Assembly: GCA_030697365.1 (NCBI GenBank)
Contig: JAUYQH010000200.1
Span: 4,670-68,669 of the forward strand
DNA from: Novosphingobium sp.
Lineage (GTDB): Bacteria > Pseudomonadota > Alphaproteobacteria > Sphingomonadales > Sphingomonadaceae
Length of the DNA stretch: 64,000 nucleotides
Direction: 5' to 3'
In this document: positions 2,301-54,841 of the stretch, piece by piece
Position numbering within the stretch: the first letter of the stretch is position 1
Layout of the letters: the number at the start of each line of letters is the position of its first letter
Notes under the pieces: generated by a model
The model's input: only the letters and a program-made list of their open reading frames with translations
Told to the model about the DNA's origin: nothing
Databases searched by the model: none
Made by a program: the position numbers and the translations under genes

Positions 2301-2980
2301 CAGGCGGGCATCCCGTCAAGCTTGCGACCAAGCACAACCGCGCCCTGGATCACCACGGGCACCACGATCAGGCTCAGCGCCACCTTGGCGATCATTTGCC
2401 CGACCAACAGCGGCCCGATCGGAAACACACCGTAGAACGCGACGGTAATGAAGATCAGCGTATCGACAACTTGGCTCAGCGCCGAGGCGATGGCGCCGCG
2501 AGCCATCAGCCACCATCCGCTGCCGCCCTTTTCCGATCCGCTCAGCGCGCTGAAAACCCGAACGTTGAGCAGGGTCGAAATGCCGTAAGCGAGGATTCCG
2601 GCGCCCATCAGTCGCGGCCCTTGCGACAGCACCATCTGGAACGCATCCAGCCGCGCGCGATCCATGTCGGCCGCGGCAGGCAGCCCCAGCACGAAGCCGA
2701 TCAGCGCCATCGCCAGGATCAGCGGGACGAAGCCGACGATCACCATCCGGTTGGCCATGGCGCGTCCGTGCAACTCGGCCACCGCGCTCGACAAAACGAC
2801 CAGCATCAGGAAGGCGAAAATGCCTGCCTCCACCGCCAGCGGACCGAGCGCGACTTGCTTGTTTCCAAGCACGCCGGCCAGTACCGTCATCCCGCCATAG
2901 ATCAGCGCGAAGACGAACAGCGAACGCGGGATCGAGAGCGCGGTTTGCGCGGGGGTCTGGGTGAGCGGGGGACTATCCAT
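2300..2980 (-). CDS. Queuosine-precursor transporter (VUT/YhhQ family)
   Basis: Six predicted hydrophobic helices; [33 protein letters not shown] motif typical of VUT; TGATG overlap with argB. Confidence 0.85.
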
Positions 2981-3061
2981 CGCGGCCCGATAGCGGGATT
3001 TTGACCGTCCGCCAAATCCCCCCTAACACCCCGCCACAACTGGGGTCGGAGCAACTTCCCG

Positions 3062-4390
3062 ATGCGTGTCTTCTACTCACTGCTCGGTATCGCCCTGATC
3101 CTGCTCGTGGCCTTCGCGCTTTCCAGCAACCGTCGCGCGATCCGCCCGCGGGTGGTCGCTGCGGCGTTTGCGCTGCAGGCCGGGTTCGCCGCGATCGTGC
3201 TCTACTTCCCGCCGGGCAACTATGCGTTGCAAAGCGCGGCGCGCGGGGTCGAGAACCTGCTCGGCTATGCCAAGGCGGGGATCGATTTCCTGTTCGGCCC
3301 GCTCGCCAGCCCCGAGATCGGCGGGACCAGCTTCGCCATCGCCGCGCTGCCCGTGATCATCTTCTTCGCCGCGCTGATCTCGATCCTTTATTATCTGGGG
3401 ATCATGCAGCTGATCATCCGCTGGATCGGCGGCGCGCTGGAGAAGATCACCGGGATCAGCAAAGTCGAAAGCCTGACCGCGGCGGCCAACATCTTCGTCG
3501 GGCAGAGCGAGAGCCCGCTGGTGATCCGCCCCTATCTGGCCGGGCTCAACCAGTCGCAGCTGTTCCTGGTGATGACCGTGGGCATGGCTGGCGTCGCGGG
3601 GACAATCCTGGCGGCTTACGCCAGCATGGGGATCCGTATCGACTATCTCGTCGCCGCCGCGTTTATGAGCGCGCCGGGCGGGATCCTGATGGCCAAACTG
3701 ATCATGCCCGACGAATTGCCCCACCGCGAACCCGACCCCGCAGTCCGCGCTGCGATCGAGGCCGAGATCAACGAAGGGGGCCCGGTAGCAGGTGAGCCCC
3801 TGACCAACCCGCACGATCCCGCGACGATCAGCCCGGTCGAGGTGGAATCCATCGAGGATGGCGAGGAGCGCCCCGCCAACATCATCATGGCCGCCAGCCA
3901 GGGCGCGCAGACCGGCGTGAAACTCGCGGTGGCGGTCGGCGCGATGGTTCTCGCGTTCGTCGCGCTTGTCGCGCTCGCCAACGGAATCCTCGGCGGCGTC
4001 GGCGGCTGGTTCGGCTATCCCGACCTCAGCTTCCAGCAGATCATCGGTTACGTTTTCGCTCCGGTGATGTGGCTGCTCGGTGCCGAAAGCTGGGCCGAGG
4101 CGCTGCGCGCGGGCGGGCTGTTCGGTACCAAGCTGGTGCTCAACGAGTTCGTCGCGTTCATCGACCTGGGCAAGGACGCGGTTCTCTCGCCCCACATGGT
4201 CGCGGTGGTGACGTTTGCCTTGTGCGGTTTTGCCAACTTCAGCTCGATCGCAATCCAGATGGCGGTGACCGGCGGCCTCGCTCCCAACCAGCGCCCGCAT
4301 ATCGCGCGACTCGGGATCAAGGCACTGGTGGCGGGAAGCCTCGCCAACCTGATGAGCGCGGCGCTGGCGGGGTTGTTTTTGTCGCTTTGA
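3062..4390 (+). CDS. Concentrative nucleoside transporter (CNT/NupC family)
   Basis: GIDFLFG, ANIFVGQSESP, TKLVLNEFVAF, FALCGFANFSSIAIQ, LANLMSA motifs. Confidence 0.93.
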   Translation: MRVFYSLLGIALILLVAFALSSNRRAIRPRVVAAAFALQAGFAAIVLYFPPGNYALQSAARGVENLLGYAKAGIDFLFGPLASPEIGGTSFAIAALPVIIFFAALISILYYLGIMQLIIRWIGGALEKITGISKVESLTAAANIFVGQSESPLVIRPYLAGLNQSQLFLVMTVGMAGVAGTILAAYASMGIRIDYLVAAAFMSAPGGILMAKLIMPDELPHREPDPAVRAAIEAEINEGGPVAGEPLTNPHDPATISPVEVESIEDGEERPANIIMAASQGAQTGVKLAVAVGAMVLAFVALVALANGILGGVGGWFGYPDLSFQQIIGYVFAPVMWLLGAESWAEALRAGGLFGTKLVLNEFVAFIDLGKDAVLSPHMVAVVTFALCGFANFSSIAIQMAVTGGLAPNQRPHIARLGIKALVAGSLANLMSAALAGLFLSL

Positions 4391-7195: not shown

Positions 7196-8803
7196 ATGCA
7201 CAGCCGTGAAGCAATGGCGCTGGAAGGCGACGCAGTGACGCTGCCCTGGCTGCGCGCGCCGTGGCTGCTGGCAGCGATTGCGGTGCTGTGCCTGCCTTAC
7301 CTGCTCGTTACGATCCCCCCGCTGATCGACCTGCCCGGGCACCTCGGCGCCGCGGCGATCGAGGCCGCGGAGCCCGGCGGCGCATTGCGCCAGTACTGGC
7401 ACTGGGAATGGGCCTATTCGCTCAACATGGGCGGCGAAGTGCTGATGAAGCTGCTCGCCGACAAGCTCGGCCTCGTCGCCGCGGGCTGGTGGAGCGCGGT
7501 GATCGCGACCGCGCTGTTCGCCGCAGGCTGTGTTGCCGCGATCCGCGCGGTCAACCCGCGGGGTGGATACGGCCTCGGCTGGGCACTGCTGTTCGTGTTC
7601 AGTTACCCGCTGCTGATGGGCTTCATCAATTATGTGCTGGCAACCGGGCTGGCGCTGCTGGTGTTTGCGGCGTGGGTGACGTGGCGCGACAGGCCGGTGA
7701 CCCGGACGGTGTTGCTGCTGCTCGCGCAGCCCGTCCTGCTGACCTGCCACGCGGTGGGCGGGGCGCTGCTGCCGTTGCTGGTCGGCGCTTACGCGCTGGG
7801 CGCAATACTCGACGAGCGCCCCGGCTGGCGCGTCGCTGTGCGCCGGCTGGCGCGCGAGTGCTGGCCGCTGCTCGCCACCTTGGCGACAATGGCGCTGTGG
7901 AAACTCGCCGCGCCCGTGGGCAAGGGAGGGCTCCAGTGGTTCGCGACGCAGAAGCTGCTCGCGTTCCCGTTCGCGTTGCGCGACCAGTCGCAGGCGCTCG
8001 ACATCGCGACGCTGGTTGCCTGCGGGGTGCTGCTGGTCGCCGGGGCCATCATTGGCGCGCGCTGGTCTTGGCGGCAGGGACTGCCCGCGCTGGCGCTCGC
8101 AGTGCTGTTCGCGATCGCCCCGGGCGCGATCGACGGCAGCGCGCTGATCGACGTGCGGCTGCTGCCGGTCGCGATCATGCTGGCGCTGGGCTTGCAGGAC
8201 TGGAGCCGGGTGAGCCTGCCCGTGGCGCGCGGCGTGGCACTGGCGGGGGTCGCGCTGCTCAGCGTGCGGCTGGCGGCAACCGCGCACGGCTTCGCCGCGT
8301 ACGACGCGGACTACAAGACCCAGCTCGCCGCGCTCGACCGGGTCCAGCCGGGGGCCAAGGTGCTCGCGCTGGTCGAGCACAGCTGTCTGCGCGAATCGTG
8401 GCGGACGAGCCGGACCGATCACCTCCCCAGCCTGGCGAGCGTCTATCGCGGGGCCTGGACCAACGACAACTGGGCGGTTCCGGGGCTGCACATGCTCAAG
8501 CCGAAGTTCCGTCCCGGGCCGGGCTATAGCGCCGATCCTTCGACTTTCGTGTGGTCGCCGGGCTGCTCGGGCGGCACATTGCTGCGCGGGGTCGAGCAGG
8601 CGATGCGCAGGGCGCCGCTCGAGAAGGTCGATTACGTCTGGCTGATCGGCACCGGCGAACTGAAGAAGGACGACCAGCGACTCGCCGAAGTCTGGCGCTC
8701 GGGGCGCAGCGTACTCTACGCGGTCAAGGCGCGAACCAACGTGCTGGGCGGGCAGGCGATGGCCAAATCCACGGTGAAAGTCCGCGCGCCTACCAAGGGC
8801 TAA
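7196..8803 (+). CDS. Polytopic membrane protein, possible GT-C-fold glycosyltransferase
   Basis: 535 aa; about 10-12 hydrophobic helices, PPLIDLPGHL in the first loop, soluble C-terminal domain; function not assignable from the sequence alone. Confidence 0.6.
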   Translation: MHSREAMALEGDAVTLPWLRAPWLLAAIAVLCLPYLLVTIPPLIDLPGHLGAAAIEAAEPGGALRQYWHWEWAYSLNMGGEVLMKLLADKLGLVAAGWWSAVIATALFAAGCVAAIRAVNPRGGYGLGWALLFVFSYPLLMGFINYVLATGLALLVFAAWVTWRDRPVTRTVLLLLAQPVLLTCHAVGGALLPLLVGAYALGAILDERPGWRVAVRRLARECWPLLATLATMALWKLAAPVGKGGLQWFATQKLLAFPFALRDQSQALDIATLVACGVLLVAGAIIGARWSWRQGLPALALAVLFAIAPGAIDGSALIDVRLLPVAIMLALGLQDWSRVSLPVARGVALAGVALLSVRLAATAHGFAAYDADYKTQLAALDRVQPGAKVLALVEHSCLRESWRTSRTDHLPSLASVYRGAWTNDNWAVPGLHMLKPKFRPGPGYSADPSTFVWSPGCSGGTLLRGVEQAMRRAPLEKVDYVWLIGTGELKKDDQRLAEVWRSGRSVLYAVKARTNVLGGQAMAKSTVKVRAPTKG

Positions 8804-8880
8804 GAACCACTCCTCACCCCGGTTGCCGCGCGCGCCGTCCCGTCCTAGACCCTGCACTAGCGCGCTACAGGGGGTTTGGG

Positions 8881-11145
<2,265 letters not shown>

Positions 11146-17638: not shown

Positions 17639-18634
17639 TCAAGCTGCCGGGACTCCCAACGTCGCCGCGGCCTCGCGCAGTTGCCTGCTGGTCGCGCCGT
17701 CGTTCCTGAAAGCCGCCAGCGCGTCTTGCAGCGCCAGGGCGGCCTTCCGCTGCTCGCCCAACTGCATCCGGCTGCGCATGAGCATGATCCAGCCTTGCGC
17801 ATTGTTCGGGTTGGCCTTGAGCTTGGCCTCGAGTCCGTCGACCATGCCCTGGACCATCTGGTCCTGCGCGCCTTTGGGCAGCGCGCTGGCGGCCTGGATC
17901 TGGTCGCGGGTCGGGCCGGGGATGCCCGCGGTCGCAACGTCCGGGCCGGTTGTGGTGAAGCCATTGGCGGGGGGTGCAGGGCTGGCCGCGGCGAGCCGCG
18001 CGGCGACCTCGATCCCGTTCTTTTTGCCCACCGCCTGGATCACTTCGCGCACGTCGGCCACCCACGGCGCGTCGGCGGGCGAATCCTTGAGCAGCGCGAA
18101 CCATTCGTCGATCGCCGCCTGGTGCCTGCCGTCGAGATCGAGCCGGACCGCGCGGAAGTAACGCGCGCGCGGCTCCTTGGGGTCGAGCGCCAGCGCGGCG
18201 TCGAACGCGGCTGTCGCGTCGGGCGGAACCCCGTCGCCGTCCCTGCTCGCCAGCACCAGCGCCTCGCCCAACATCGAGAAATATTCGGGGTTCTTCGGAT
18301 CGAGCACGGTCGCGCGCTTCATCGCGGTCGCCGCTTCGGCATAACGTTCGGTCTGGTAATACGACCAGCCAAGCATCCGCCAGCCCTCGGCGTCTTGCGG
18401 ATTGGTCTTGAGCCGCGCCTCGAGCTTGGTGATGACCTCATCCACTGATGGCTGTGCGGCTTCGGCAGATGCGGCGGCGGGCGGTGCCTCGCGGTTGCGC
18501 CAGATCGCAATTCCGCCCGCAACGACCGCGATCGCCGCAGCGGCGGCCAGCGCGATCCGCCCACCGCGCGCCGGGCTGCCTGCGGGACTTGGCGTGATTT
18601 CTGACGGTGCGGCGGTGGTCTCGGTTTCGCTCAC
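17639..18634 (-). CDS. TPR protein, CcmI/CycH/NrfG-like cytochrome c maturation factor
   Basis: GTG at 18634 with RBS GAGGAG; one N-terminal TM helix; LEARLKTNPQDAEGWRMLGWSY and LEAKLKANPNNAQGWIMLMRS repeats typical of CcmI/CycH. Confidence 0.75.
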   Translation of the reverse strand: MSETETTAAPSEITPSPAGSPARGGRIALAAAAAIAVVAGGIAIWRNREAPPAAASAEAAQPSVDEVITKLEARLKTNPQDAEGWRMLGWSYYQTERYAEAATAMKRATVLDPKNPEYFSMLGEALVLASRDGDGVPPDATAAFDAALALDPKEPRARYFRAVRLDLDGRHQAAIDEWFALLKDSPADAPWVADVREVIQAVGKKNGIEVAARLAAASPAPPANGFTTTGPDVATAGIPGPTRDQIQAASALPKGAQDQMVQGMVDGLEAKLKANPNNAQGWIMLMRSRMQLGEQRKAALALQDALAAFRNDGATSRQLREAAATLGVPAA

Positions 18635-18849
18635 GGGGGCCCTCCTCAAAGCAGCGCAACAGCCGCGCGTATCGGGTGCGCGCAAGGCACTGGTCAAGCG
18701 CTTCGCGGCAAACGCCGGGCAAGTCGAAAATAGCGGGTGGAAATCGTAGCTTGTTTCGCTAAGGTCGAGTCAATCGGGGGTCGCAGCAGGCAGATACGGG
18801 GCGTGGGCACGATAGTGCCGCGACCTGTTGCGACGGGGGACGTACACCG

Positions 18850-21426
18850 GTGAGCCAGATCTACAAGGTAGCGATCATCGGGTCGGGGCCGGCGGGGATG
18901 AGCGCCGCGAGCCACGCCGCCAAGCTCGGCCTCAACCACGTCCTGCTCGAAAAGACCGACCACCTTTCCGATACGATCTACAAGTATCAGAAGGGCAAGC
19001 ACGTCATGGCGACGCCCAACCAGCTGATCCTGCGAAGCGACCAGGAATTCGACGCAGGCAAGCGCGAGGACATCCTCGGCAAGTGGAATGACCGGACCAA
19101 GGAACTCAGCGTCAACGTCAAGTTCAACGCCGAGGTCAAATCGATCAAGGGCACCGGCGATGCGATTGCCGGATCGATCCAGAAGATGGTCGCGCGCGCC
19201 CGCGACGGCACCACCACCACCACCGAACTACAGCGCATGGCTCCGCCCTACGAACTCACGCTGACCAGTGGCGAGAAGGTAATCGCCGAGAACGTCATCC
19301 TGGCGATCGGCACGCAGGGCAACCCCAACCTGATGCGCTGCCCCGGCGGTGACTTGCCCCACGTGACCTACCAGCTCGACGATCCCTATGTGGTGGTCGA
19401 TCAGCACATCACCGTGATCGGCACCGGCGACGCGGGGATCGAGAACGCGCGCGGGCTGGTTGAGGACGAGGTCCAGGGCAACGTCGTGACGGTGCTCAAC
19501 CGCGCCCAGAAATCGACCAACGTGCGTGAAAGCTTTGCGACCGCGAAGGAACCCAACGCCAAGGCGCTGGTCGATGACGATGCCGCGGGCCGCCTGACGA
19601 TCATGTACGAGACCGAGACCAAGGAGGTCGAACCCGGCTGGATCGTGCTGGCGACGCGCGACGGCGAGGAACGGATCCGCTGCGACCGGATCATCGCGCG
19701 GATCGGCTCGGCCCCGCCGCGCGGGTTCGTCGAGGGCTGCGGGATCGAGTTCGCCAGCCAGGACCGGCTCGCCTTCCCCACGCTGTCGCCGGTGTTCGAA
19801 TCGACCGCGCCGGGGATTTTCGTGATCGGCGCGCTGGCCGGCTATCCGCTGATCAAGCACTGCATGAACCAGGGCTACGACGCGGTCGAGTTCATCAACG
19901 GCAACACCAGCCTGAAACCTGCCGACCAACCGCTGCTCGACGCCAAGTTCGCGGGATTGCCCGGCAATCGCTCGGTCGAGCAATGGCTCGATTTCCTCAA
20001 GAGCAACGTCACCATCCTCGAAGGCATGACCACGCTGCAGCTGCGTGAGTTCATGCTCGATTCGGATATGCGCGCGTACCGCAAGGGCGAGGTAATCTTC
20101 GAAAAGAACGATCCCGGATCCTCGCTGTTCGCGATCGCAGACGGGCTGGTCCACGTCCAGATCGATCCCACCGACAAGTCCAAGATCGTACCGATCGAGA
20201 AGGGTTCGATCTTCGGCGAAGTCGGGCTGATCTCGGGCCGCCGCCGCGGCGCGACGATCGTCGCCGCCGAGGACACCGTCTGCGTCGAGATAAGCCGCAA
20301 CGCCGCGCTCAAGCTGCAGAGCCAGGTGCCGACCGCCAAGAAGGCGATCGAACGCATCTCGACCGAGCGCCAGCTGCTCCAGATGTTCGGCGCGGGGTTG
20401 AACCCGGCGGACATCAAGGAAGTGGTCGACGACGCCAAGATCATGCAGATCAAGGCCGGCGACACGATCCTGCGCGAGGGCGACGACGGCAAGGAAATCT
20501 TCGTGATCCGGGTCGGCTCGATGATCGTGGAGAAGATGGTCGGCGGCAAGCCGGTGTTCCTCAGCTACCTTCCCGCGGGATCCTACGTCGGGGAAATGGC
20601 GCTGATCGCGGGGGGCCAGCGCACCGCCAGCGTGCGCGCCGCGGTCAAATCCGAAGTCATCAAGATCGACGGCGAGAAATTCGAGGCGGTGCTCAGGACC
20701 AAGCCCGCACTGCTCGAACGCGCGCGCAAGGACATGGACTTGCGCCGGCAGACCAACGCGCTGATCGAATCGAAGAAGGATTCCATATCGAGCGTGGTCG
20801 ATCTGTGGTCGGAACAGGCCGAGTTCCTCGTCGCGCAGGGGCTGGGCGAGGCGACCGACGTGCTGCTGATCGACGAAACGCTCTGCGTCGGCTGCGACAA
20901 CTGTGAAAAGGCCTGCGCCGACAGCCATGAAGGGCTGAGCCGGCTCGACCGCGAGGCGGGCAAGACTTTCGCCCATCTCCATGTGCCGACATCGTGCCGC
21001 CACTGCGAACACCCACACTGCATGGCCGATTGCCCGCCCAACGCGATCCACCGCGGCCCCGACGGCGAGGTGTTCATCAACGACACCTGCATCGGCTGCG
21101 GCAATTGCCAGCGCAACTGCCCATATGGCGTGATCCGGATGGACAAGGTCCCGCCCAAGAAGCCTTCGCTGCTCAACTGGCTGTTCTTCGGAAGCGGCCC
21201 CGGCCCGGGCGAACCGCCTTACAAGTGGTCGAAGAAGAACATGAAGTACACTGGCAATCCGGCGATCGACGAATCGCTCGACCGCAAGAAGGCGGTCAAG
21301 TGCGACATGTGCGCGGGGATCGATGGCGGCCCGGCCTGCGTGCGGGCCTGCCCGACCGGCGCAGCGATCCGCATCGCGCCCGACGAGTTCCTGACCGTCG
21401 CCCGACTCGAAGAGGAGAGCGCGTGA
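18850..21426 (+). CDS. FAD/NAD(P) oxidoreductase fused to two cNMP-binding domains and a 4x[4Fe-4S] ferredoxin domain
   Basis: GSGPAG and GTGDAG Rossmann motifs; FGEVGLISGRRRGAT and VGEMALIAGGQRTAS phosphate-binding cassettes; CVGCDNCEKAC, CRHCEHPHCMADCP, CIGCGNCQRNCP, CDMC..ACVRACP. Confidence 0.9.
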   Translation: MSQIYKVAIIGSGPAGMSAASHAAKLGLNHVLLEKTDHLSDTIYKYQKGKHVMATPNQLILRSDQEFDAGKREDILGKWNDRTKELSVNVKFNAEVKSIKGTGDAIAGSIQKMVARARDGTTTTTELQRMAPPYELTLTSGEKVIAENVILAIGTQGNPNLMRCPGGDLPHVTYQLDDPYVVVDQHITVIGTGDAGIENARGLVEDEVQGNVVTVLNRAQKSTNVRESFATAKEPNAKALVDDDAAGRLTIMYETETKEVEPGWIVLATRDGEERIRCDRIIARIGSAPPRGFVEGCGIEFASQDRLAFPTLSPVFESTAPGIFVIGALAGYPLIKHCMNQGYDAVEFINGNTSLKPADQPLLDAKFAGLPGNRSVEQWLDFLKSNVTILEGMTTLQLREFMLDSDMRAYRKGEVIFEKNDPGSSLFAIADGLVHVQIDPTDKSKIVPIEKGSIFGEVGLISGRRRGATIVAAEDTVCVEISRNAALKLQSQVPTAKKAIERISTERQLLQMFGAGLNPADIKEVVDDAKIMQIKAGDTILREGDDGKEIFVIRVGSMIVEKMVGGKPVFLSYLPAGSYVGEMALIAGGQRTASVRAAVKSEVIKIDGEKFEAVLRTKPALLERARKDMDLRRQTNALIESKKDSISSVVDLWSEQAEFLVAQGLGEATDVLLIDETLCVGCDNCEKACADSHEGLSRLDREAGKTFAHLHVPTSCRHCEHPHCMADCPPNAIHRGPDGEVFINDTCIGCGNCQRNCPYGVIRMDKVPPKKPSLLNWLFFGSGPGPGEPPYKWSKKNMKYTGNPAIDESLDRKKAVKCDMCAGIDGGPACVRACPTGAAIRIAPDEFLTVARLEEESA

Positions 21427-22388
21427 TGGCGACGCTTCCCCACACCCCCGACAAGGGTGACTTCGAGACCGCGGCGACGACCAAATCCTCGACCTCGACC
21501 CGCACCCCCAAGACCGCACCGCGGGTCCGCCGCGACAAGGTCACCAGCCACGACAGCTTCCTCAACTACGGCAACGGCCGCTGGTGGAAGATCGCCATCG
21601 TCATCGCGGTCGTTTCGTTCGCGACCTATTTCCTGATCGACGTCGAGCCGCGTCACAACGGCGGATCGTGGTACGGCTATACGATGGGCACGATCGGCTT
21701 TGCGCTGATCCTCTGGCTGACCCTGCTCGGCGTGCGCAAGCGGGCGATGACTCCGGGACGGTGGAGCCTCAAGGCGTGGACCAGCGCGCACGTTTATCTC
21801 GGGCTCAGCCTGATCGTGATCGGCACGCTCCACACCGGGTTCCAGCTGGGCTGGAACGTTCACACGCTGGCGTGGGCGCTGATGATGCTGGTGATCCTGT
21901 CGGGACTGTTCGGGATCTACGTCTACGCCACGCTGCCCAAGGCGCTGTCGGCCAACCGTTACGACGAGGACGGCGCGATCACCGAGAAGGTGATGATCGA
22001 ACAGATGAAGCAGCTCGATCGCCAGATCCACGATGCCGCACAGCCGCTCGACCCCGAAGCCGCGACCATTGTCGAGCGGAGCCTGGGCGAGAACGTCTTC
22101 GCGGGCAGTTTCTGGCAGCGCGCCCGCAACAGCTATCCCGGTGACCTGACCCGGATCGCGATGGGCGAGCTACGCAAGTTGCGCAACTTCCGGCCGCGAA
22201 CCGACGACGATCCGTTCGAGCGGGTCGAAACGCTTCTGTCCAAGAAGGAGGCCCTGCTCGCGAAATTGCGACGGCACCTCCAGCTCAAGTCGTGGCTCCA
22301 AGCCTGGCTCTATATCCACGTCCCTGCAACCTTCGCGCTGATCGCCGCGCTCTCTGCGCACGTGTTCAGCGTGTTCTTCTACTGGTGA
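21426..22388 (+). CDS. Membrane protein with ferric-reductase-like di-heme b ligands
   Basis: ATG overlaps the upstream TGA (TGATG); His pairs at codons 21789/21831 and 22317/22359, each H-X13-H in a hydrophobic helix. Confidence 0.8.
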   Translation: MATLPHTPDKGDFETAATTKSSTSTRTPKTAPRVRRDKVTSHDSFLNYGNGRWWKIAIVIAVVSFATYFLIDVEPRHNGGSWYGYTMGTIGFALILWLTLLGVRKRAMTPGRWSLKAWTSAHVYLGLSLIVIGTLHTGFQLGWNVHTLAWALMMLVILSGLFGIYVYATLPKALSANRYDEDGAITEKVMIEQMKQLDRQIHDAAQPLDPEAATIVERSLGENVFAGSFWQRARNSYPGDLTRIAMGELRKLRNFRPRTDDDPFERVETLLSKKEALLAKLRRHLQLKSWLQAWLYIHVPATFALIAALSAHVFSVFFYW

Positions 22389-22395
22389 GCGGCGC

Positions 22396-24276
22396 ATGAG
22401 CTTTCTTGTCCGCCAGATCGCACTGAAGGCCAGCGGGGACGAGATCGTCCGCGCAAAAAGGGTCGATGGCGACGAAATGAAGATCGGCCGTGACGGCGCT
22501 TGCGGCCTCCACCTGCCCGATCTTGCGGTCGATCCCGAGCACGCGCTGGTCACCCAGCTTGACGAGACCCACATCGAGATCGAATCGCTGCACGGCCAGC
22601 CGTTCGAAGTCGATGGCCAGTCGGTCCAGCGCAAGGAGCTCGACGTCACGCTCGGCTCCGAACTCAAGTTCGGCAGCCACCGGATCAAGCTGGGGCAAGA
22701 TGCGCGCAGCCGCTTTCCGACGTTTACCGTGCGCCGCGAAGCGCCGCTGTCGCACTCCAACTCGGATCCCGACACCAACGAGGCCTATACGCTCAAGGGA
22801 CTGGTCCCGGGCAAGCGGATGAGCGCCTGGGCGTTCGCCGCGATGGTCCTGCTCGCGTTCCTCGCCTGGCCGATCTGGAGCTATGCCAGCTACAGCGACC
22901 TCGCGCTCAAGAAGGACGCTGCGCGGCCGGCGGGCTATCATGGCGATAAGGCGTGGGAATCGGGCAAGCTCAGCCTCGCGCACCAGGGGCTCGAGAACGA
23001 TTGCCAATCGTGCCACGTCGAGCCGTTCGTGGCGGTGCGCGACAACGCCTGCCAGACCTGCCACACCAAGGTCCACGATCACATCAAGGACACCGCGCGG
23101 TTGGTGGCGGCGCGCGGCGAGCCGGGCGGGTTCGCCTCGTTCACACGGGCGGTGGCGACGACCTTCAACAAGCCCGCGGGGCGCTGTGTCGAATGTCACA
23201 CCGAGCACGAGGGCGCGGGTGATATGGCACCCACGGCGCAGAAGTTCTGCACCGATTGCCATGCCGAGATGAAATCGCGCTTGCCCGACACGAAGCTTCC
23301 CGACGCGGCCGACTTCGGCACCTCGCACCCGCAGCTGCGCCCGACGGTGATCGCCGACACCACCGACGCAGCCAAGCCGAAGCTGCGCCAGATCGTCTGG
23401 TCGCAGGACGCCAAGGAATTCAACGGGCTGAAATTCACCCACGCCCAGCACCTCTCGACGGTCAATGGCGTTGCCCAGATGGTCCGCCGCCGCCCCAACG
23501 AGTTCCCCGACCAGGAAGGGCTCGATTGCGAGAACTGCCACCAGACAGATGCCTCAGGCGTGTGGTTCAAGCCGGTGGTGATGGAGGAATCCTGCCAGAC
23601 CTGCCACAGTCTGACCTTCGACAAGATCGGCGGGACCTTCCGCACACTGCGTCACGGTGAGCCCGAGATGGTCGTCGCCGACTTGCGCGGGTTCTTCGCC
23701 GCGGGCGCGCCGACGCGCCCGATCAACCTCGATTCGATGAGCCGCCGGGTTCCGGGCGATCGCGCCGCGGCCGAGACCGCGGGCGATTACGCACGCGCGG
23801 TGCGGTTCTATCCGACCCAGGCCGGCCAGGCGATCCAGATGCTGTTCAACAAGGGCGGCGCCTGCTTCGACTGCCACAACATCACCCGCACCGGCACCGC
23901 GGCGACTGCGGGCTACAACGTCCAGAACGTGGTCCAGACCCAGCGCTACTACCACAAAGGCTGGTTCACCCACGCCAAACACACCAAGTACGAATGCGTC
24001 GATTGCCACGTGAAGGCCCAGAACACCAACGACGCCACCGACCTTCTGGTCCCCGGGCTCGACGGCAAGGGCGGCTGCCGCGATTGCCACGTCGGCGGGA
24101 CCGGGGCCAAGCTGGCTTCGGCCTCGGTCAAGCAACCGGTGGAATCGCAATGCGCGATGTGCCACGACTATCACCTCGACGACAAAGCACCGTGGATGAC
24201 CCGCTTGCCAGCATCCCGGCGCGCCTCTTACGATCGCCGCCGCAACGCGGGTGCGGGGCAGAACGCCTCCAAGTAG
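22396..24276 (+). CDS. Membrane-anchored decaheme cytochrome c with N-terminal FHA-like domain
   Basis: KIGRDGACGLHLPDLAVDPEH FHA-like motif; TM helix AWAFAAMVLLAFLAWPIW; 10 CXXCH motifs (CQSCH, CQTCH, CVECH, CTDCH, CENCH, CQTCH, CFDCH, CVDCH, CRDCH, CAMCH). Confidence 0.92.
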   Translation: MSFLVRQIALKASGDEIVRAKRVDGDEMKIGRDGACGLHLPDLAVDPEHALVTQLDETHIEIESLHGQPFEVDGQSVQRKELDVTLGSELKFGSHRIKLGQDARSRFPTFTVRREAPLSHSNSDPDTNEAYTLKGLVPGKRMSAWAFAAMVLLAFLAWPIWSYASYSDLALKKDAARPAGYHGDKAWESGKLSLAHQGLENDCQSCHVEPFVAVRDNACQTCHTKVHDHIKDTARLVAARGEPGGFASFTRAVATTFNKPAGRCVECHTEHEGAGDMAPTAQKFCTDCHAEMKSRLPDTKLPDAADFGTSHPQLRPTVIADTTDAAKPKLRQIVWSQDAKEFNGLKFTHAQHLSTVNGVAQMVRRRPNEFPDQEGLDCENCHQTDASGVWFKPVVMEESCQTCHSLTFDKIGGTFRTLRHGEPEMVVADLRGFFAAGAPTRPINLDSMSRRVPGDRAAAETAGDYARAVRFYPTQAGQAIQMLFNKGGACFDCHNITRTGTAATAGYNVQNVVQTQRYYHKGWFTHAKHTKYECVDCHVKAQNTNDATDLLVPGLDGKGGCRDCHVGGTGAKLASASVKQPVESQCAMCHDYHLDDKAPWMTRLPASRRASYDRRRNAGAGQNASK

Positions 24277-24286
24277 AAATAATGAA

Positions 24287-25135
24287 ATGCTGGTCGCACA
24301 GATTACCGATATCCACCTTGGCTTCGAGCCGGACACGCCGGGCGAGTTCAATCGCCAGCGGCTGGATCGTGCGCTAGCTGCGCTGACCGCGCTCGATCCG
24401 CTGCCCGATCTGATGCTGGCAACCGGCGACCTCGTCGATCGCGGCGATGTCGACAGTTATCGCCGCCTGCGCGAGGCGTTTGCCGGGCTGCCCTTCCCCG
24501 TCCACTACGCGCTGGGCAACCACGACGTGCGGCGTAACTTTGCGCAAGTCTTCCCCGAGGCCGCCTTGATCGACGGCTTCCTCCAGTATGTGATCGAGAC
24601 CGGCCCGCTGCGGCTGGTCGTGCTCGATACGCTGCAAGAAGGCCGCCACGGCGGCGCGTTCTGCGAACGGCGCGCGCGGTGGCTGCGCGATACGCTCGAC
24701 GCAGCGCCAGAGCGCAATACGCTGATCGTACAGCATCATCCGCCGGTCGAAACGGGCATCGCGTGGATGAACACCGATCCGGCCGAGCCCTGGGTCCACC
24801 GCCTGGCCGATTGCCTGCGCGGTCGTCCGAACGTGGTCGGGCTGGTTTGCGGACATATCCACCGCGCGATCGTCACCCGTTGGGAGGGCGTCACCGTCGC
24901 CACCTGTCCCTCGACCGCGCCACAAGTCGCGCTCGAACTGCTCCCGATCGACCCCGAGCGCCCCGACGGCCGCCCGCTGATCGTCGCCGATCCTCCCGCT
25001 TATGCGCTGCACTGGTGGAACGGGCGCGAACTGATCACCCACTTCGACACCGCCGAAGACCACGAAGTGCTTGCCAGCTATGACGACGACCTCAAGGACA
25101 TGATCGCCAACATGCTGGCGGAACGTCCGGTTTAG
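24287..25135 (+). CDS. CpdA/Icc-like metallophosphoesterase (putative 3',5'-cyclic nucleotide phosphodiesterase)
   Basis: ATG at 24287, 10 nt after the cytochrome stop; QITDIH, TGDL, GNHD, HHPP, GHIHR metal-binding motifs. Confidence 0.85.
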   Translation: MLVAQITDIHLGFEPDTPGEFNRQRLDRALAALTALDPLPDLMLATGDLVDRGDVDSYRRLREAFAGLPFPVHYALGNHDVRRNFAQVFPEAALIDGFLQYVIETGPLRLVVLDTLQEGRHGGAFCERRARWLRDTLDAAPERNTLIVQHHPPVETGIAWMNTDPAEPWVHRLADCLRGRPNVVGLVCGHIHRAIVTRWEGVTVATCPSTAPQVALELLPIDPERPDGRPLIVADPPAYALHWWNGRELITHFDTAEDHEVLASYDDDLKDMIANMLAERPV

Positions 25136-25217
25136 GGGCGCACCTCCGACCTCCATCTCCGCTCGTGTCGAGCAGCCCCGCGCGGCAGCGATCGTCACGA
25201 AACCCGAAGTAACCGCC

Positions 25218-26588
25218 TTACCGCGAACCCCGCCCCGCGCGAGACAGCGCCAGCATTTGCGCCCCGTCGCGATTGTACAGATCGTCGCGGAACACGATCC
25301 GGCCCTCGTCGGGCGCGGCGGTGAGGTAAGTGATGTAGACGGGCACCGGCTGCTCGAGCGGGACCACCTGTTCGACGGCACCCTTCTTGGGCGCGGGCAT
25401 CTTGCCGTATAGCCAGGTGCCCAGCCGCGACGCGTCCTCGAGCCGCACGCAGCCCGAACTGGCGAAGCGCACCTCTTCCTTGAGCAGCGCCTTGTCGGGG
25501 GTATCGTGGAGGTAGATGCCCTGGTCGTTGGGGAAGTTGAACTTCACCTTGCCCATGAAATTGCCCTTGCCTGGCAGCTGGCGAACGCGCAGCTCCCGGG
25601 TTCCCGCCTCCACAGCCTTCCAGTCGATCCGCGCGGGATTGAGGACCTTGGGCTTGTCGGACCAGTCGCTCAGCGCCTGATACCCCTTAGCCTTCAAGTA
25701 GCCGACGCCGTTTTTGTTGACGTTCCACGCGATGCGGCTGCGGACCAGATCGGGCGGCACGTTCCAATAGGGATTGAGCACCGCGTTGCTCAGCAGCCCC
25801 GCCATCATCGGGGTCGGTTCGGATGGCTTGCCGACCACGACCTTCATCGAATCGACGATCTTTCCGTCCTCGAACATATAGAGCCGCGCGCCCGCTGTAT
25901 CGACCAGCACGTAACGCTTGGCCGGGTTCGCGGGGATCGCGCGGGCGCGTTCGAGGTTGAGCTGAACCAGCTCGGTCCCCTCAAGGCCAAGCTCGCGCGC
26001 GGCCAAGGCATCGCGCAGATCGTTGTAGAACGGATGCATCCACGCCATGTTGTCGACATAGCGTTCAAGCGAGGGCGCCGCGGCAGCCGCGGTCAGCGAC
26101 GCGTTGGCGGTGGGCATGATCGGCGCGAGCAGATTCGACTGGTAGGTCATCCCCGCATCGCGTGGTGCGCGGGTGCCCTGGACGTAGGCGGCGAAAGTCC
26201 TTGAAAACGCCAGCTCGGCCTTGGCCAGATCGTCGGCATCCCCCTTGCGCGCGCGTTTGAGATAGCCACGGAGGCGATCGGCCTGAAGCGCCTTGCGGCT
26301 GAGACCGTCGTAATGGGCGGTCGCGATCAGCTGGTAGAGCGCCTCGGCAGCCTGGTTGGGTGCGTCGCCCTCGATCCACAGCGGGCGATAGCCGCGGGTG
26401 ATGTAGAACGCGCGCAAGGTGGCGTCGGTTTTGGTGTTGGCGTCGAGCGCCGCCATTATCTCGGCCGGCGGGAGGTCCGCATGAGCGAGCGACGGCGCCA
26501 GCATCGCTGCTGCCGCCGCCGTGATCGCCAGTCCCGAAAGGCCGGCCGGGCGTTTACGCCGCCCGGCCAGAGATCCCAGTTTGCGCAT
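25218..26588 (-). CDS. L,D-transpeptidase family protein (YcbB/LdtD-like)
   Basis: Signal-like N-terminus; MKVVVGK, NPYWNVPP, RQLPGKGNFMGKVKF, IYLHDTP...SSGCVRL catalytic His/Cys. Confidence 0.9.
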   Translation of the reverse strand: MRKLGSLAGRRKRPAGLSGLAITAAAAAMLAPSLAHADLPPAEIMAALDANTKTDATLRAFYITRGYRPLWIEGDAPNQAAEALYQLIATAHYDGLSRKALQADRLRGYLKRARKGDADDLAKAELAFSRTFAAYVQGTRAPRDAGMTYQSNLLAPIMPTANASLTAAAAAPSLERYVDNMAWMHPFYNDLRDALAARELGLEGTELVQLNLERARAIPANPAKRYVLVDTAGARLYMFEDGKIVDSMKVVVGKPSEPTPMMAGLLSNAVLNPYWNVPPDLVRSRIAWNVNKNGVGYLKAKGYQALSDWSDKPKVLNPARIDWKAVEAGTRELRVRQLPGKGNFMGKVKFNFPNDQGIYLHDTPDKALLKEEVRFASSGCVRLEDASRLGTWLYGKMPAPKKGAVEQVVPLEQPVPVYITYLTAAPDEGRIVFRDDLYNRDGAQMLALSRAGRGSR

Positions 26589-52334: not shown

Positions 52335-52440
52335 GCCTTCTCCCGTCTGGAGAGCGGTCGCGACACCGGGTTGCAGAGTGACCCGCCGCCGGGAGTGGTG
52401 TCAATTTGCTTTGGCACCGCTTCGGGCTGGGTCCCGAACG

Positions 52441-52465
52441 GGAACGCATCGCTCAAACCCCCGTT
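52441..52465 (+). promoter_or_regulatory. EcfG (sigma-T/RpoE2) general-stress promoter for the Cdc48-like ATPase
   Basis: Exact GGAAC-N16-CGTT, 57 nt before the ATG at 52523. Confidence 0.78.
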
Positions 52466-52522
52466 TGCATTCCCGGTCGCGCGTTCCTAGCTGTTGCCGG
52501 GACGAAACGGACAGGACGAAGC

Positions 52523-54841
52523 ATGGCTGACGCAGCGACCGCGATCGCACCCATTGACAATGGCATCCGGCTTCAGGTCGCGGGCGCGCGGCAGGAGGAG
52601 AGCGGCACCGGCTTTGCCCGGATCAGCCGCGCGACGATGGCGCAGCTCGGGATCACCGAGGGCGACGTGATCGAGATCGAGGGCAAGCGCGCCACCGCGG
52701 CGCGCGCGATCCTGCCGCATCCCGAGGACGAGGGGATCGAGGTGATCCGCCTCGACGGGCTCCAGCGCGCCAACGCCGAAGTCGCCTCGGGCGAGCACGT
52801 GATCGTCCGCAAGGCCGAGGCCAAGCCCGCGCAGCGCGTGGTGTTCGCCCCCGCGCAGCGCGAGCTGCGCCTGCAAGGCCCGGCGCAGGCGCTCAAGCGC
52901 AACTTCTTCCAGCGCCCGTTCGCCACCGGCGATCTCGTCGCCACCGCCGGCCAACAGCAGGTCGATCGCAGCGACATGCCGCCGCAGCTGCGCCAGATGC
53001 TCGACGTCCCCGCGTTCGCGCTGACCCAGATTCGCCTCTCGGTGATCGCCACGGTGCCGCGGGGGATCGTCTACATCGACGAGAACACCGAGGTGGAACT
53101 GCGCGCCGAATACGAGGAGCCGCGCGACAGCCGCGCCGAGCTCAACTATGACGACGTCGGCGGGATCGGCGACACCGTCCGCCAGTTGCGCGAGATGGTC
53201 GAACTGCCGCTGCGCTATCCCGAGCTGTTCCGCCGGCTGGGTGTCGATCCGCCCAAGGGGGTGCTGCTCCACGGCCCGCCGGGAACGGGCAAAACCCGCC
53301 TCGCCAAGGCGGTGGCGAACGAGAGCGACGCCAGCTTCTTCACGATCAACGGTCCCGAGATCATGGGATCGGCCTATGGCGAGAGCGAAAAACGGCTGCG
53401 CGAGGTGTTCGAGGAGGCCAAGCGTTCCTCCCCCGCGATCATCATCATCGACGAGATCGATTCGATCGCCCCCAAACGCGATCAGGTCCACGGAGAGGCC
53501 GAAAAGCGCCTCGTCGCGCAGCTCCTGACGCTGATGGACGGGATCGAATCGCGCGTCAGCCTGGTAGTGATCGCCGCGACGAATCGCCCCAACGCGATCG
53601 ACGAGGCGCTGCGCCGCCCCGGCCGGTTCGACCGCGAGATCGTGATCGGGGTGCCCGACGAGGGAGGGCGCCGCGAGATTCTGGCAATCCACACCCGCGG
53701 CATGCCGCTGGGCGAGGGGGTCGATCTCAAGGAGCTGGCGCGCACCACCCACGGCTTCGTCGGCGCCGATCTCGCCGCGCTGACCCGCGAGGCGGCGATC
53801 GAGGCGGTGCGGCGGATCATGCCCCTGCTCGATCTTGAAGCGCAGACGATCCCGCCCGAAGTGCTCGACGACCTGCGGGTGGAGCGCGAGGACTTCCTCG
53901 ACGCGCTCAAGCGCATCCAGCCGAGTGCGATGCGCGAAGTGATGGTCCAGGTGCCGACTGTGGGTTGGGACGATGTCGGCGGGCTCGACGACGCGCAGGA
54001 GACGCTGCGCGAGGGGATCGAACTGCCAATGAAGCATCCCGAGGCGTTCCACCGCCTGGGTATCCGCCCCGCCAAGGGCTTCCTGCTCTATGGCCCGCCC
54101 GGCACCGGCAAGACGCTGCTCGCCAAGGCGGTGGCCAAGGAAGCCGAGGCCAACTTCATCTCGATCAAATCGTCCGACCTGCTCAGCAAGTGGTTCGGCG
54201 AGAGCGAGCAGCAGATCGCGCGGCTGTTCGCGCGCGCGCGACAGGTCGCGCCGTGCATCGTGTTCATCGACGAGATCGACAGCCTGGTCCCCGCGCGCGG
54301 CAGCAGCGCGGGCGAGCCGCAGGCGACCGCGCGGGTGGTCAACACCATCCTCGCCGAGATGGACGGGCTGGAGGAGCTGCAATCGGTGATCGTGATCGGT
54401 GCGACCAACCGCCCGGCGCTGGTCGATCCGGCGTTGCTCCGGCCGGGCCGGTTCGACGAACTGGTCTATGTCGGCACGCCAAGCGAGGAAGGCCGCGTCC
54501 ATATCCTAAAGATCCACACCGCGGCGATGCCGCTGGCGAGCGATGTCGATCTCGCCAAGGTCGCGGCAGAGACCGCGCGCTTCACCGGAGCCGATCTGGA
54601 AGACGTGGTCCGCCGCGCAGGCCTCAACGCGCTGCGCCGCGCCGGGTCGCAAGTCAGCGAGGTGACCGGCGAGGACTTCCGCGAAGCGCTCTCCGATTCG
54701 CGCGCTACGGTGACCGAGGAGATGGAGAAGGAATACGAGAAGATGAAGGGCGAATTGAAGAAGCGCGCGATGGCCGTCTCGCCGATCGGTTTCATCGCGC
54801 CGGGCATGGTGAGTTCGACAAGGGATGTGAAGCACGGGTGA
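52523..54841 (+). CDS. CDC48/p97/VAT family AAA+ ATPase
   Basis: N-domain (double-psi barrel: ARIS...[10 protein letters not shown]), two AAA modules each with [14 protein letters not shown] and NRP..ID.AL.RPGRFD. Confidence 0.95.

Follow-up and report, generated by a model that had tools for sequence, protein, structure and literature searches.

A four-gene operon in Novosphingobium with a probable role in cyclic-nucleotide-controlled electron export from NAD(P)H to the periplasm

What is the function of a protein that joins a flavoprotein module, two cyclic-nucleotide-binding (CNB) domains and a ferredoxin domain with ligands for four [4Fe-4S] clusters? Such a protein, here called A, is encoded in a 64,000-nucleotide stretch (the window) of the Novosphingobium sp. 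assembly GCA_030697365.1 (contig JAUYQH010000200.1, positions 4,670 to 68,669 of the forward strand). Gene A is the first gene of a tight operon, A-B-C-D, in which B is a membrane protein with five transmembrane (TM) helices, C is a membrane-anchored decaheme cytochrome c and D is a predicted class III cyclic-nucleotide phosphodiesterase. The A-B-C(-D) module is real, widespread and uncharacterized. Our answer to the question is that the operon probably moves electrons outward, from NAD(P)H into the periplasm, and that a cyclic nucleotide controls this export, with A as the subunit through which the electrons would enter.

The four modules of protein A

Gene A begins with a GTG codon, and its GC content at third and second codon positions (0.88 and 0.43, respectively) is that of the genuine genes of this window, which has 66% GC. 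In the translation Pfam finds Pyr_redox_2 and Pyr_redox_3 at residues 1-342, cNMP_binding (PF00027) in two stretches (121.8 bits versus a cutoff of 27.5) and several 4Fe-4S dicluster families at residues 674-840, giving the module order flavoprotein, CNB-A, CNB-B and 4x[4Fe-4S]. An earlier note, made from the letters of gene A, had described this architecture, and all of the motifs it quoted are present in the translation, which confirms that A is a real protein having four modules. As that note also said, there is no signal peptide; neither this, a Tat motif nor a TM segment was found in the sequence, and the FAD-binding beta-alpha-beta unit begins at residue 5.

Conservation was assessed in two sets, an alignment of 40 full-length homologues having identities down to 28% and the A proteins of 80 genomic loci (39-92% identity). 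The 40 homologues share, without exception, all 16 cysteine ligands of the iron-sulfur (FeS) domain, the FAD motif GxGxxG and, in the second Rossmann fold, the GD..E; the motif pattern is therefore far beyond chance. The AlphaFold2 model of A built from the same 40-homologue alignment is confident (mean predicted local distance difference test score, pLDDT, 83.8; predicted TM-score 0.75), with weak stretches at about residues 103-133, a clade-specific insert, and 780-810, the loop between Cys groups III and IV. The insert is Thr-rich, contains ARARDGTTTTTELQRMAPP (19156-19248), has pLDDT <50 and is missing or unaligned in distant homologues. When the model was searched against the PDB with Foldseek, the whole four-module architecture had no match.

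The N-terminal module has the two-Rossmann FAD/NAD(P)H fold of TrxB, as seen by both Pfam and Foldseek. Its best NCBIfam match is the YpdA family (TIGR04018, 109.3 bits versus a cutoff of 339.9), the TrxB match (TIGR01292) being limited to residues 5-38. In the Foldseek search the structures closest to residues 1-350 were Bdr/YpdA (7a76 and 7a7b), at a TM-score of about 0.8. Many thioredoxin reductases (TrxR) were also found, and the TrxR-like ferredoxin-NADP+ reductases 3ab1, 3lzw, 6gar and 2zbw scored below YpdA (0.5-0.67). Residue-level alignment places Ala15 of the A motif GSGPAG at the Cys of the YpdA/Bdr motif GGGPCG. Only five Cys residues of A lie outside the FeS domain (164, 278, 297, 338 and 478) and no CxxC is found among them, nor does one occur in the TrxR-equivalent stretch (about residues 150-200) in the 40-sequence alignment or the 80 loci. 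The TrxB-type fold lacking redox Cys residues that the earlier note proposed is thus borne out by the structural similarity to Bdr/YpdA and by the Cys to Ala15 replacement. The note was right that CxxC is absent, but it looked for the lost motif within MRCPGGDLPHV (residues 162-172), whereas alignment with YpdA and TrxR puts the TrxB CxxC site a few residues downstream of MRCPGG, near HVTYQLDD. A function as a disulfide reductase of either the TrxR or the YpdA type was considered and rejected, as the catalytic Cys is missing. Lacking that residue the flavin module can do no thiol-disulfide chemistry, and its electrons must therefore go directly to another cofactor.

The pyridine nucleotide used is less clear-cut. 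The sequence VTVLNR of A aligns with VTVLYR of the NADPH-dependent Bdr, and the Arg of this motif (Arg218) is conserved in >90% of the 40 homologues. NADPH is a plausible substrate, but the preference for it that was claimed in the earlier note is weakly supported, by this near-invariant Arg.

The 16 Cys residues of the C-terminal domain fall in the four groups of a four-cluster ferredoxin (residues 679-834). Fer4_11 matches with 45.4 bits (cutoff 26.2), and the best match among PDB sequences, over residues 672-846, is HycB (7z0s_B, E = 5.9e-20). The top NCBIfam matches are HydN, DmsB, ArrB, NrfC, FDH-beta and HybA, all far under their equivalog cutoffs (HydN 61.5 versus 260; DmsB 56 versus 214), and the domain folds like HycB/ArrB/NrfC. 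No molybdoenzyme or hydrogenase gene lies next to gene A. The long loop between Cys groups III and IV contains a conserved hydrophobic insert, SLLNWLFFGSG (family consensus PxLLxxLLFG), a candidate for an amphipathic segment through which A would dock on B or the membrane.

Between the flavin and FeS modules, residues 411-624 (approximately) align with the tandem CNB domains of the protein kinase A (PKA) regulatory subunit RI-alpha and of protein kinase G (PKG) at E values of about 1e-17 to 1e-18 in a search of PDB sequences. Foldseek likewise matches the mid-section of A with the tandem CNB-A/B domains of PKA regulatory (R) subunits and PKG. Both phosphate-binding cassettes (PBCs) are canonical and intact. 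In the 80 loci the PBC-1 consensus is FGE[VLMI][GSA]L[ILV]SGR[RKP]R[GSTN..] and that of PBC-2 is GE[MV].L....R, and the Gly-Glu and Arg residues of both cassettes are essentially always retained. The earlier note suggested that the Thr of the RTA in the second cassette could favor cGMP. RTA is found in the cAMP-preferring HCN2 as well. The residue following the PBC-2 Arg varies (T/S/N/M/A/Y) among the orthologues of the 80 loci, and a cGMP preference was therefore rejected as unsupported.

Probable partners of A in the membrane and the periplasm

The start codon of gene B overlaps the stop codon of gene A (TGATG). The B protein has five hydrophobic helices with a cytoplasmic helical insert of about 120 residues between helices 4 and 5. 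Five of its His residues (122, 136, 146, 298 and 312) are 98-100% conserved in 68 homologues. Four of these form two pairs with a spacing of 14 residues within each pair, and the two helices concerned point the same way across the membrane; His146 is an extra invariant residue that, together with Asn144, lies near the periplasmic end of TM4. The distribution of positive charges (RVRRDK ahead of TM1 and a conserved RKR past TM2) indicates that helices 3 and 5 run from inside to outside. With this topology His122/His298 would lie toward the cytoplasm and His136/His312 toward the periplasm, as expected for a stack of two bis-His hemes. Some B homologues carry the UniRef label 'Ferric reductase like transmembrane component'. 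Pfam Ferric_reduct gave no match to B; the weak match is to PF01292 (cytochrome b561/HyaC), and 19 of 26 diverse B homologues match this family independently at E <= 0.01. Heme b binding is well motivated by these ligand patterns, and B is probably a di-heme cytochrome b. The statement of the earlier note that a DmsB/NrfC-type subunit normally docks on a membrane cytochrome b therefore fits this operon, in that the next gene is translationally coupled, encodes a five-TM protein with four invariant His residues and has homologues that weakly resemble such cytochromes.

Gene C begins 7 nucleotides downstream of gene B. The single TM helix of the protein (residues 142-164) separates a cytoplasmic FHA-like domain from the periplasmic heme-binding region, and exactly ten CXXCH motifs are present in all 53 complete homologues. 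The FHA-like domain keeps its Gly-Arg and His residues in the 53 homologues. The canonical phosphothreonine-binding Ser is not kept (it is Asp in the window protein), which makes classical phosphothreonine recognition doubtful. Instead of reading phosphorylation, the domain may have a structural or docking role, as does the FHA of YscD. Searches of PDB sequences with phmmer gave no matches for either B or C.

Relatives of A were sought exhaustively with HMMER among 1.84 billion cluster representatives, and 632 clusters match at E <= 1e-30. The closest proteins are those of Novosphingobium sp. Gsoil 351 (96% identical) and of the cultured, genetically tractable strain N. aromaticivorans DSM 12444 (85%), and the closest orthologues are annotated merely as 'cyclic nucleotide-binding domain-containing protein' or 'oxidoreductase'. 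The four-module form (about 790-880 residues) persists to about 30% identity, whereas a shorter form of about 450-510 residues consists only of CNB-CNB-FeS.

The 80 loci, taken from GTDB species genomes, come from Sphingomonadales, Caulobacteraceae, Rhizobiales and Rhodospirillaceae among the Alphaproteobacteria; from Lysobacterales, Steroidobacteraceae, Woeseiaceae and Chromatiales; from Burkholderiales (Usitatibacter, Limnobacter, Methylotenera and Gallionella); and from Candidatus Sulfotelmatobacter (Acidobacteriota), Binatia and a metagenome-assembled genome (MAG) labeled Thermoflexus. The order A then B then C is found in about 65 of the 80, across Alpha-, Beta- and Gammaproteobacteria, Acidobacteriota and Binatia. 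Most of the remaining loci are on truncated contigs. About nine complete loci (L049, L050, L056-L059, L066, L067 and L071) are without B and C. In this sub-clade the gene order is HbpS-like lipoprotein, porin-like barrel, decaheme, tetraheme and A last, with A directly downstream of the LVIVD decaheme (about 1270-1620 residues) or, in most, with the tetraheme of about 450 residues between them. Because the loci lacking B and C carry these upstream cytochromes, A is nearly always tied to multiheme cytochromes c. Unbiased clustering of the neighboring open reading frames (ORFs) showed that in beta, gamma and some alpha lineages an HbpS/GlcG-like lipoprotein (about 665 residues), a porin-like barrel (about 614 residues), an LVIVD-repeat decaheme (about 1300 residues) and a c554-like tetraheme recur.

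Physical association of the subunits is further suggested by rarer arrangements. A Magnetococcus sp. YQC-9 MAG (L083, 7001-10333; MEO5345780.1) encodes a 1110-residue A-B fusion, the B part of which matches at E = 6e-91, followed by a C homologue. As this is a single contig and a sequencing or gene-calling artefact at the overlapping stop and start codons is possible, the fusion gives modest Rosetta-stone support. Downstream of one short-form A homologue come a B homologue (profile E = 8e-28), which has the same two His pairs, and a small cytochrome c. At another short-form locus are found a separate flavoprotein of the Pyr_redox_2/Reductase_C ferredoxin-reductase type, a small ferredoxin and a c554-type multiheme, together with an Apyc1-like phosphodiesterase of the metallo-beta-lactamase (MBL) fold and the start of a CHASE2 protein. 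We consider it likely that A belongs to an A-B-C complex.

Gene D starts 10 nucleotides after the stop codon of gene C and directly follows C in 30 alphaproteobacterial loci. All of the motifs of the class III enzymes are present (DxH, GD, GNHD, HH and GHIH). Metallophos scores 65 bits, and the best NCBIfam models are SpdA (134 bits, 7e-39, versus a cutoff of 400) and CpdA (98.7 bits, 4e-28, versus 225). These scores assign D at the family level only, as a phosphodiesterase of the class III metallophosphoesterase type. An ORF of 335 residues on the opposite strand (24374-25381) was first taken as a conserved neighbor, but is an out-of-frame shadow of gene D.

D is one of three non-homologous cyclic-nucleotide enzymes that recur beside the A family, the others being a CHASE2 class III cyclase and an Apyc1-like phosphodiesterase. 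The CHASE2 cyclase is found at six loci (L020, L034, L051, L064, L065 and L071) with FecR-like proteins alongside, and an Apyc1-like MBL-fold cyclic-nucleotide phosphodiesterase and CHASE2 are present at 2571-3332 and 7879-8682 of the locus L082. Such enzymes adjoin A family members in unrelated lineages, and of the evidence available their recurrence speaks most strongly for cyclic-nucleotide sensing by the CNB domains. Hence, the cyclic-nucleotide control supposed in the earlier note gains comparative backing from two sides, the cassettes kept in the 80 loci and the three unrelated neighboring enzymes.

The positions of all features are given in Table 1. Gene T, which is conserved beside A in 32 loci, encodes a candidate apocytochrome-c maturation chaperone and may be a dedicated factor for the decaheme. 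A scan of 18500-25500 for sigma-70 promoters and intrinsic terminators gave results at chance level. The window stems from a groundwater metagenome, and the sequencing runs in which it is present are all DNA runs. In three soil RNA-type runs we found only short contigs, 90-95% identical and scattered over A-D; these are weak evidence that relatives of the operon are transcribed and have no bearing on operon structure. Apart from these genes, the window consists of ordinary core chromosome (MutS, MaeB, RpoN, PolA, MetK and Lnt). Unrelated to A-D, an 811-residue CDC48-like double-AAA ATPase with CDC48_N and CDC48_2 is encoded at 52406-54841 (+). Two long ORFs of high third-position GC, 7196-8803 (+) and 8551-11145 (+), overlap by about 250 nucleotides; in the second, which encodes a MaeB-type malic enzyme/PTA fusion, the assigned start is probably too far upstream.

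Table 1. Features of the operon and of gene T, in window coordinates (residue numbers are those of the protein concerned)
Feature	Position	Strand	Basis
Gene T, membrane-anchored TPR protein of CcmH/CycH/NrfG type	17639..18697	-	divergent, upstream of A
Gene A, cytoplasmic flavo-FeS protein, 858 aa	18850..21426	+	ORF/translation, Pfam, NCBIfam, AlphaFold2
A, YpdA/TrxR-fold FAD + NAD(P)H module, residues ~1-350	18850..19899	+	Pfam, alignment, Foldseek
A, FAD motif GSGPAG, residues 11-16	18880-18897	+	motif position
A, second Rossmann motif GTGDAG, residues 191-196	19420-19437	+	motif position
A, VLNR with Arg218, residues 215-218	19492-19503	+	motif position
A, cNMP-binding domain A, residues ~390-513	20017..20388	+	Pfam, PDB search, conservation
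A, phosphate-binding cassette 1 FGEVGLISGRRRGATIVA, residues 455-472	20212-20265	+	motif position
A, cNMP-binding domain B, residues ~514-641	20389..20772	+	Pfam, PDB search, conservation
A, phosphate-binding cassette 2 VGEMALIAGGQRTASVRA, residues 580-597	20587-20640	+	motif position
A, HycB/DmsB/NrfC-type 4x[4Fe-4S] domain, residues ~668-850	20851..21399	+	Pfam, NCBIfam, PDB search, conservation
A, Cys group I CxxCxxCxxxC, residues 679-689	20884-20916	+	motif position
A, Cys group II CxxCx4CxxxC, residues 716-728	20995-21033	+	motif position
A, Cys group III CxxCxxCxxxC, residues 747-757	21088-21120	+	motif position
A, hydrophobic insert SLLNWLFFGSG, residues 773-783, between Cys groups III and IV	21166-21198	+	conserved
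A, Cys group IV CxxCx8CxxxC, residues 818-834	21301-21351	+	motif position
Gene B, 5-TM membrane protein, 320 aa	21426..22388	+	ORF, hydrophobic helices, His conservation
B, His122/His136, helix 3	21786-21833	+	conservation
B, His298/His312, last helix	22314-22361	+	conservation
Gene C, FHA-like domain + TM + decaheme cytochrome c, 626 aa	22396..24276	+	ORF, motifs
C, FHA-like domain, cytoplasmic, residues ~1-105	22396-22710	+	conserved Gly-Arg and His
C, ten CXXCH, periplasmic decaheme cytochrome c	23002-24165	+	motif
Gene D, class III cyclic-nucleotide phosphodiesterase (SpdA/CpdA-like), 282 aa	24287..25135	+	motifs, Pfam, NCBIfam

A model for electron export and its competitors

In the model we favor, NAD(P)H would reduce the FAD of the Cys-less YpdA/TrxR-fold module (A residues 1-350), from which electrons would enter the chain of four [4Fe-4S] clusters in the DmsB/HycB-type domain (A residues 668-850). 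This domain would dock on the cytoplasmic face of the five-TM protein B, and within B the electrons would pass from the cytoplasmic heme b (His122/His298) to the stacked periplasmic heme b (His136/His312), both bis-His. From B they would reach the ten c-type hemes of C in the periplasm and then a periplasmic or outer-membrane acceptor, which in other genomes may involve the porin-like barrel, the HbpS-like lipoprotein, the LVIVD decaheme of about 1300 residues and the c554-like tetraheme. The tandem PKA-R-like CNB domains, placed between the flavin and FeS modules, would make the flux depend on a cyclic nucleotide, the level of which would be set locally by the operon phosphodiesterase D plus, in some genomes, nearby CHASE2 cyclases. 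The earlier note supposed that nucleotide binding controls the FAD-to-FeS distance, which is a reasonable analogy to the hinge motions of PKA R-subunits. Gating may work by such a shift of the FeS domain relative to the flavin, by control of the docking of A on B or otherwise. We judge the model as a whole, with A as the cytoplasmic electron-input subunit of a cyclic-nucleotide-gated conduit from NAD(P)H to the periplasm, to be moderately likely, and put the outward direction and the gating at about even chances.

The potential of NAD(P)H (-320 mV) is lower than those of typical b and c hemes. Outward flow is expected because NAD(P)H is the most reducing point of the chain and the membrane potential favors movement of electrons toward the positive periplasm. 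Tight post-translational control would be sensible for a path of this kind, which costs both reducing power and membrane potential. A stricter form of the model, a quinone-independent wire of one FAD, four [4Fe-4S] clusters, two hemes b and ten hemes c that is switched allosterically by cyclic nucleotide on the PKA-R-like domains, is put forward tentatively and seems to us somewhat doubtful. If true, the module would be the first electron-transfer enzyme found to be gated by a second messenger, and the phosphodiesterase of the operon would be its off-switch.

Several results weigh against the export model. The PF01292 match of B (27.6 bits, E = 2.9e-6) is under the gathering cutoff of 30.1, the AlphaFold2 model of B, made from a shallow homologue set, is weak (pLDDT 68) and a Foldseek search of the PDB with this weak model gave nothing below E = 0.1. 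Heme b binding by B is for these reasons deduced from His conservation alone. In distant full-length homologues of A (<40% identity) the cassettes decay and the PBC Arg is often gone, and thus cyclic-nucleotide binding is not universal in the superfamily. D is under every equivalog cutoff, and the SpdA model it matches best is named as a 2',3'-cyclic nucleotide phosphodiesterase. No cyclase gene was found in the 64-kb window, where C is the only multiheme gene, with no further one that could serve as acceptor and no homologue of the porin-like, HbpS-like, LVIVD-decaheme or tetraheme proteins. Finally, literature searches for experimental work on the fusion or the cluster gave only two preprints, both of which state that the function is unknown. 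The first concerns PtdE-PtdF-PtdG of the ptdABCDEFG cluster in Alphaproteobacteria of oxygen-deficient zones (2024; bioRxiv 10.1101/2023.11.21.568154) and the second the 'NHC' cluster of Ferrigenium straubiae (2026; bioRxiv 10.64898/2026.01.22.701106).

These points leave room for four other explanations. The one that survives best, although we think it unlikely, gives B a quinone site, so that A plus B would be a regulated NAD(P)H:quinone oxidoreductase and B plus C a quinol:multiheme-cytochrome oxidoreductase, with electrons traded with the quinone pool instead of running straight through. B is distantly related to PF01292, the characterized members of which (HyaC and FdnI) are quinone-reactive di-heme cytochromes b, and quinone sites are carried by NarI, FdnI and CbcB. 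His146 and Asn144, the additional invariant residues of TM4, could belong to such a site, but no quinone-site motif was identified in B and the model of B is too poor for a view of a pocket. Quinone reduction through the module is also considered by the Ferrigenium authors (bioRxiv 10.64898/2026.01.22.701106). Against this, B is always paired with a cytoplasmic FeS protein and a periplasmic cytochrome, for which a through-conduit is the simplest arrangement.

We regard as improbable a redox sensor, in which the chain would report the redox state of the periplasm to the cytoplasm, the CNB and FHA-like domains being outputs or scaffolds with a ligand that is perhaps not a 3',5'-cyclic nucleotide. 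The degenerate cassettes of distant homologues, the FHA-like domain of C lacking the conserved phospho-binding Ser, the 2',3'-specific name of the model closest to D and the signaling genes (CHASE2 cyclase and FecR-like) near some loci would all fit this reading. However, a predicted complement of one FAD, four FeS clusters, two hemes b and ten hemes c far exceeds the wiring of known sensors, CNB domains are classically ligand-sensing inputs and many genomes add the porin-like and extra multiheme proteins typical of electron conduits.

We hold inward flow to be very improbable. Here the decaheme would be fed by periplasmic or extracellular donors, for example by Fe(II) through outer-membrane cytochromes, and the complex would carry the electrons to the flavin for NAD(P)H formation, a reverse-electron-transport shortcut in lithoautotrophs. 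Homologues do occur in the Fe(II)-oxidizer lineage Gallionella and in Methylotenera, and the Ferrigenium preprint sets the homologous cluster within Fe(II) oxidation, but the same work reports its expression in all conditions tested, heterotrophic growth included (bioRxiv 10.64898/2026.01.22.701106). Most carriers are aerobic heterotrophs, for example Sphingomonadales and Caulobacteraceae. Reverse flow is moreover disfavored because the electrons would have to climb both in redox potential and against the membrane potential, and the module has no ion-translocating subunit.

Least probable of all is that A is a stand-alone soluble cyclic-nucleotide-regulated NADPH:acceptor reductase, the enzyme that the earlier note had in mind, with its FeS domain serving soluble partners and the neighboring genes unrelated: although A has no TM segment and its single-domain relatives (YpdA, TrxR-like ferredoxin-NADP+ reductases and HycB) use soluble partners or modules, the translational coupling of A and B, the A-B-C synteny across phyla, the A-B fusion and the short-form homologues that still adjoin a multiheme cytochrome c (one of them with a confirmed B homologue) point to A as one subunit of the conserved A-B-C(-D) module.

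Known systems and the meaning of the module

The export model can be set beside the two preprint clusters, with which A-B-C was equated by gene order and by the descriptions given there. PtdEFG and NHC, like A-B-C, consist of a cyclic-nucleotide-binding 4Fe-4S protein, a 'ferric-reductase-like' protein of about five TM helices and a membrane-anchored deca- or nonaheme having a cytoplasmic FHA domain. PtdE is described as having two 4Fe-4S clusters, with a separate flavoprotein, PtdC, whereas the window protein has a fused flavoprotein and four clusters. The Novosphingobium operon is without PtdA-D genes and adds a phosphodiesterase. The Ferrigenium authors report no redox motif in the TM protein, whereas B has four invariant His residues and similarity to PF01292. 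New relative to the preprints are therefore the fused YpdA-fold flavoprotein and the four rather than two clusters of A, the invariant heme-ligand pattern and PF01292 affinity of B and the recurrent linkage to cyclic-nucleotide phosphodiesterases and cyclases.

Among characterized complexes, NarH-NarI and FdnH-FdnI resemble A-B in that a 16-Cys subunit of the same family with four [4Fe-4S] clusters stands beside a di-heme b-type membrane protein, which B probably is, and the FeS subunit of NarGHI is cytoplasmic. A-B-C differs from them by the lack of a molybdopterin subunit or Tat signal, by the fused NAD(P)H flavoprotein and by the periplasmic decaheme cytochrome c. The heme ligands of FdnI and NarI are spread over three helices, whereas B has five TM helices and both of its His pairs are spaced 14 residues apart on two helices. 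In this respect B resembles the NADPH oxidase/ferric reductase (FRD) superfamily, in which two parallel helices carry the His pairs with a spacing of 13-14 residues. That superfamily and MsrQ-Fre also share the proposed logic of A-B-C, from cytoplasmic NAD(P)H to flavin to two transmembrane bis-His hemes b to an outside acceptor. Unlike the NADPH oxidase/FRD proteins, A has a flavoprotein of the TrxR fold rather than the ferredoxin-NADP+ reductase fold, with four FeS clusters and two CNB domains intercalated, and the output would be a decaheme cytochrome rather than O2, Fe(III) or MsrP.

The individual modules of A have relatives as well. YpdA/Bdr and the YumC-type ferredoxin-NADP+ reductases have the two Rossmann motifs of A, and the Arg following beta-2 is as in the NADPH-dependent Bdr. 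In A, however, Ala replaces the YpdA Cys and the ferredoxin-like acceptor is fused in cis by way of two CNB domains. As in PKA R-subunits and PKG, the CNB domains are in tandem and both cassettes keep Gly-Glu and Arg, but in A they lie within a redox enzyme instead of regulating a kinase, channel or transcription factor. CymA, CbcBA, ImcH and NetBCD are, like A-B-C, inner-membrane modules that feed a periplasmic multiheme cytochrome, and in many genomes A-B-C clusters with a porin-like barrel and more multiheme proteins. These systems draw on the quinol pool, whereas A-B-C has a dedicated cytoplasmic NAD(P)H flavo-FeS input plus nucleotide-sensing domains. A-B-C is thus a member of none of the systems compared and is best viewed as a modular membrane complex of FeS protein, cytochrome b and multiheme cytochrome c with an unprecedented second-messenger-binding insert.

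If the export model is true, many aerobic and microaerobic Proteobacteria (Sphingomonadales, Caulobacteraceae, Lysobacterales, Steroidobacteraceae, Burkholderiales, Gallionellaceae and others) would send cytoplasmic reducing power to periplasmic multiheme cytochromes while bypassing the quinone pool, and the second-messenger switch that the path carries would be explained by the energy it dissipates. The PtdEFG and NHC clusters encountered in omics studies of oxygen-deficient zones and of Fe(II) oxidizers would acquire a concrete function, and a family of porin-cytochrome clusters would gain its missing inner-membrane entry point. The module would also be the first case in which a cyclic nucleotide controls an electron-transfer chain directly, instead of acting on transcription, kinases or channels.

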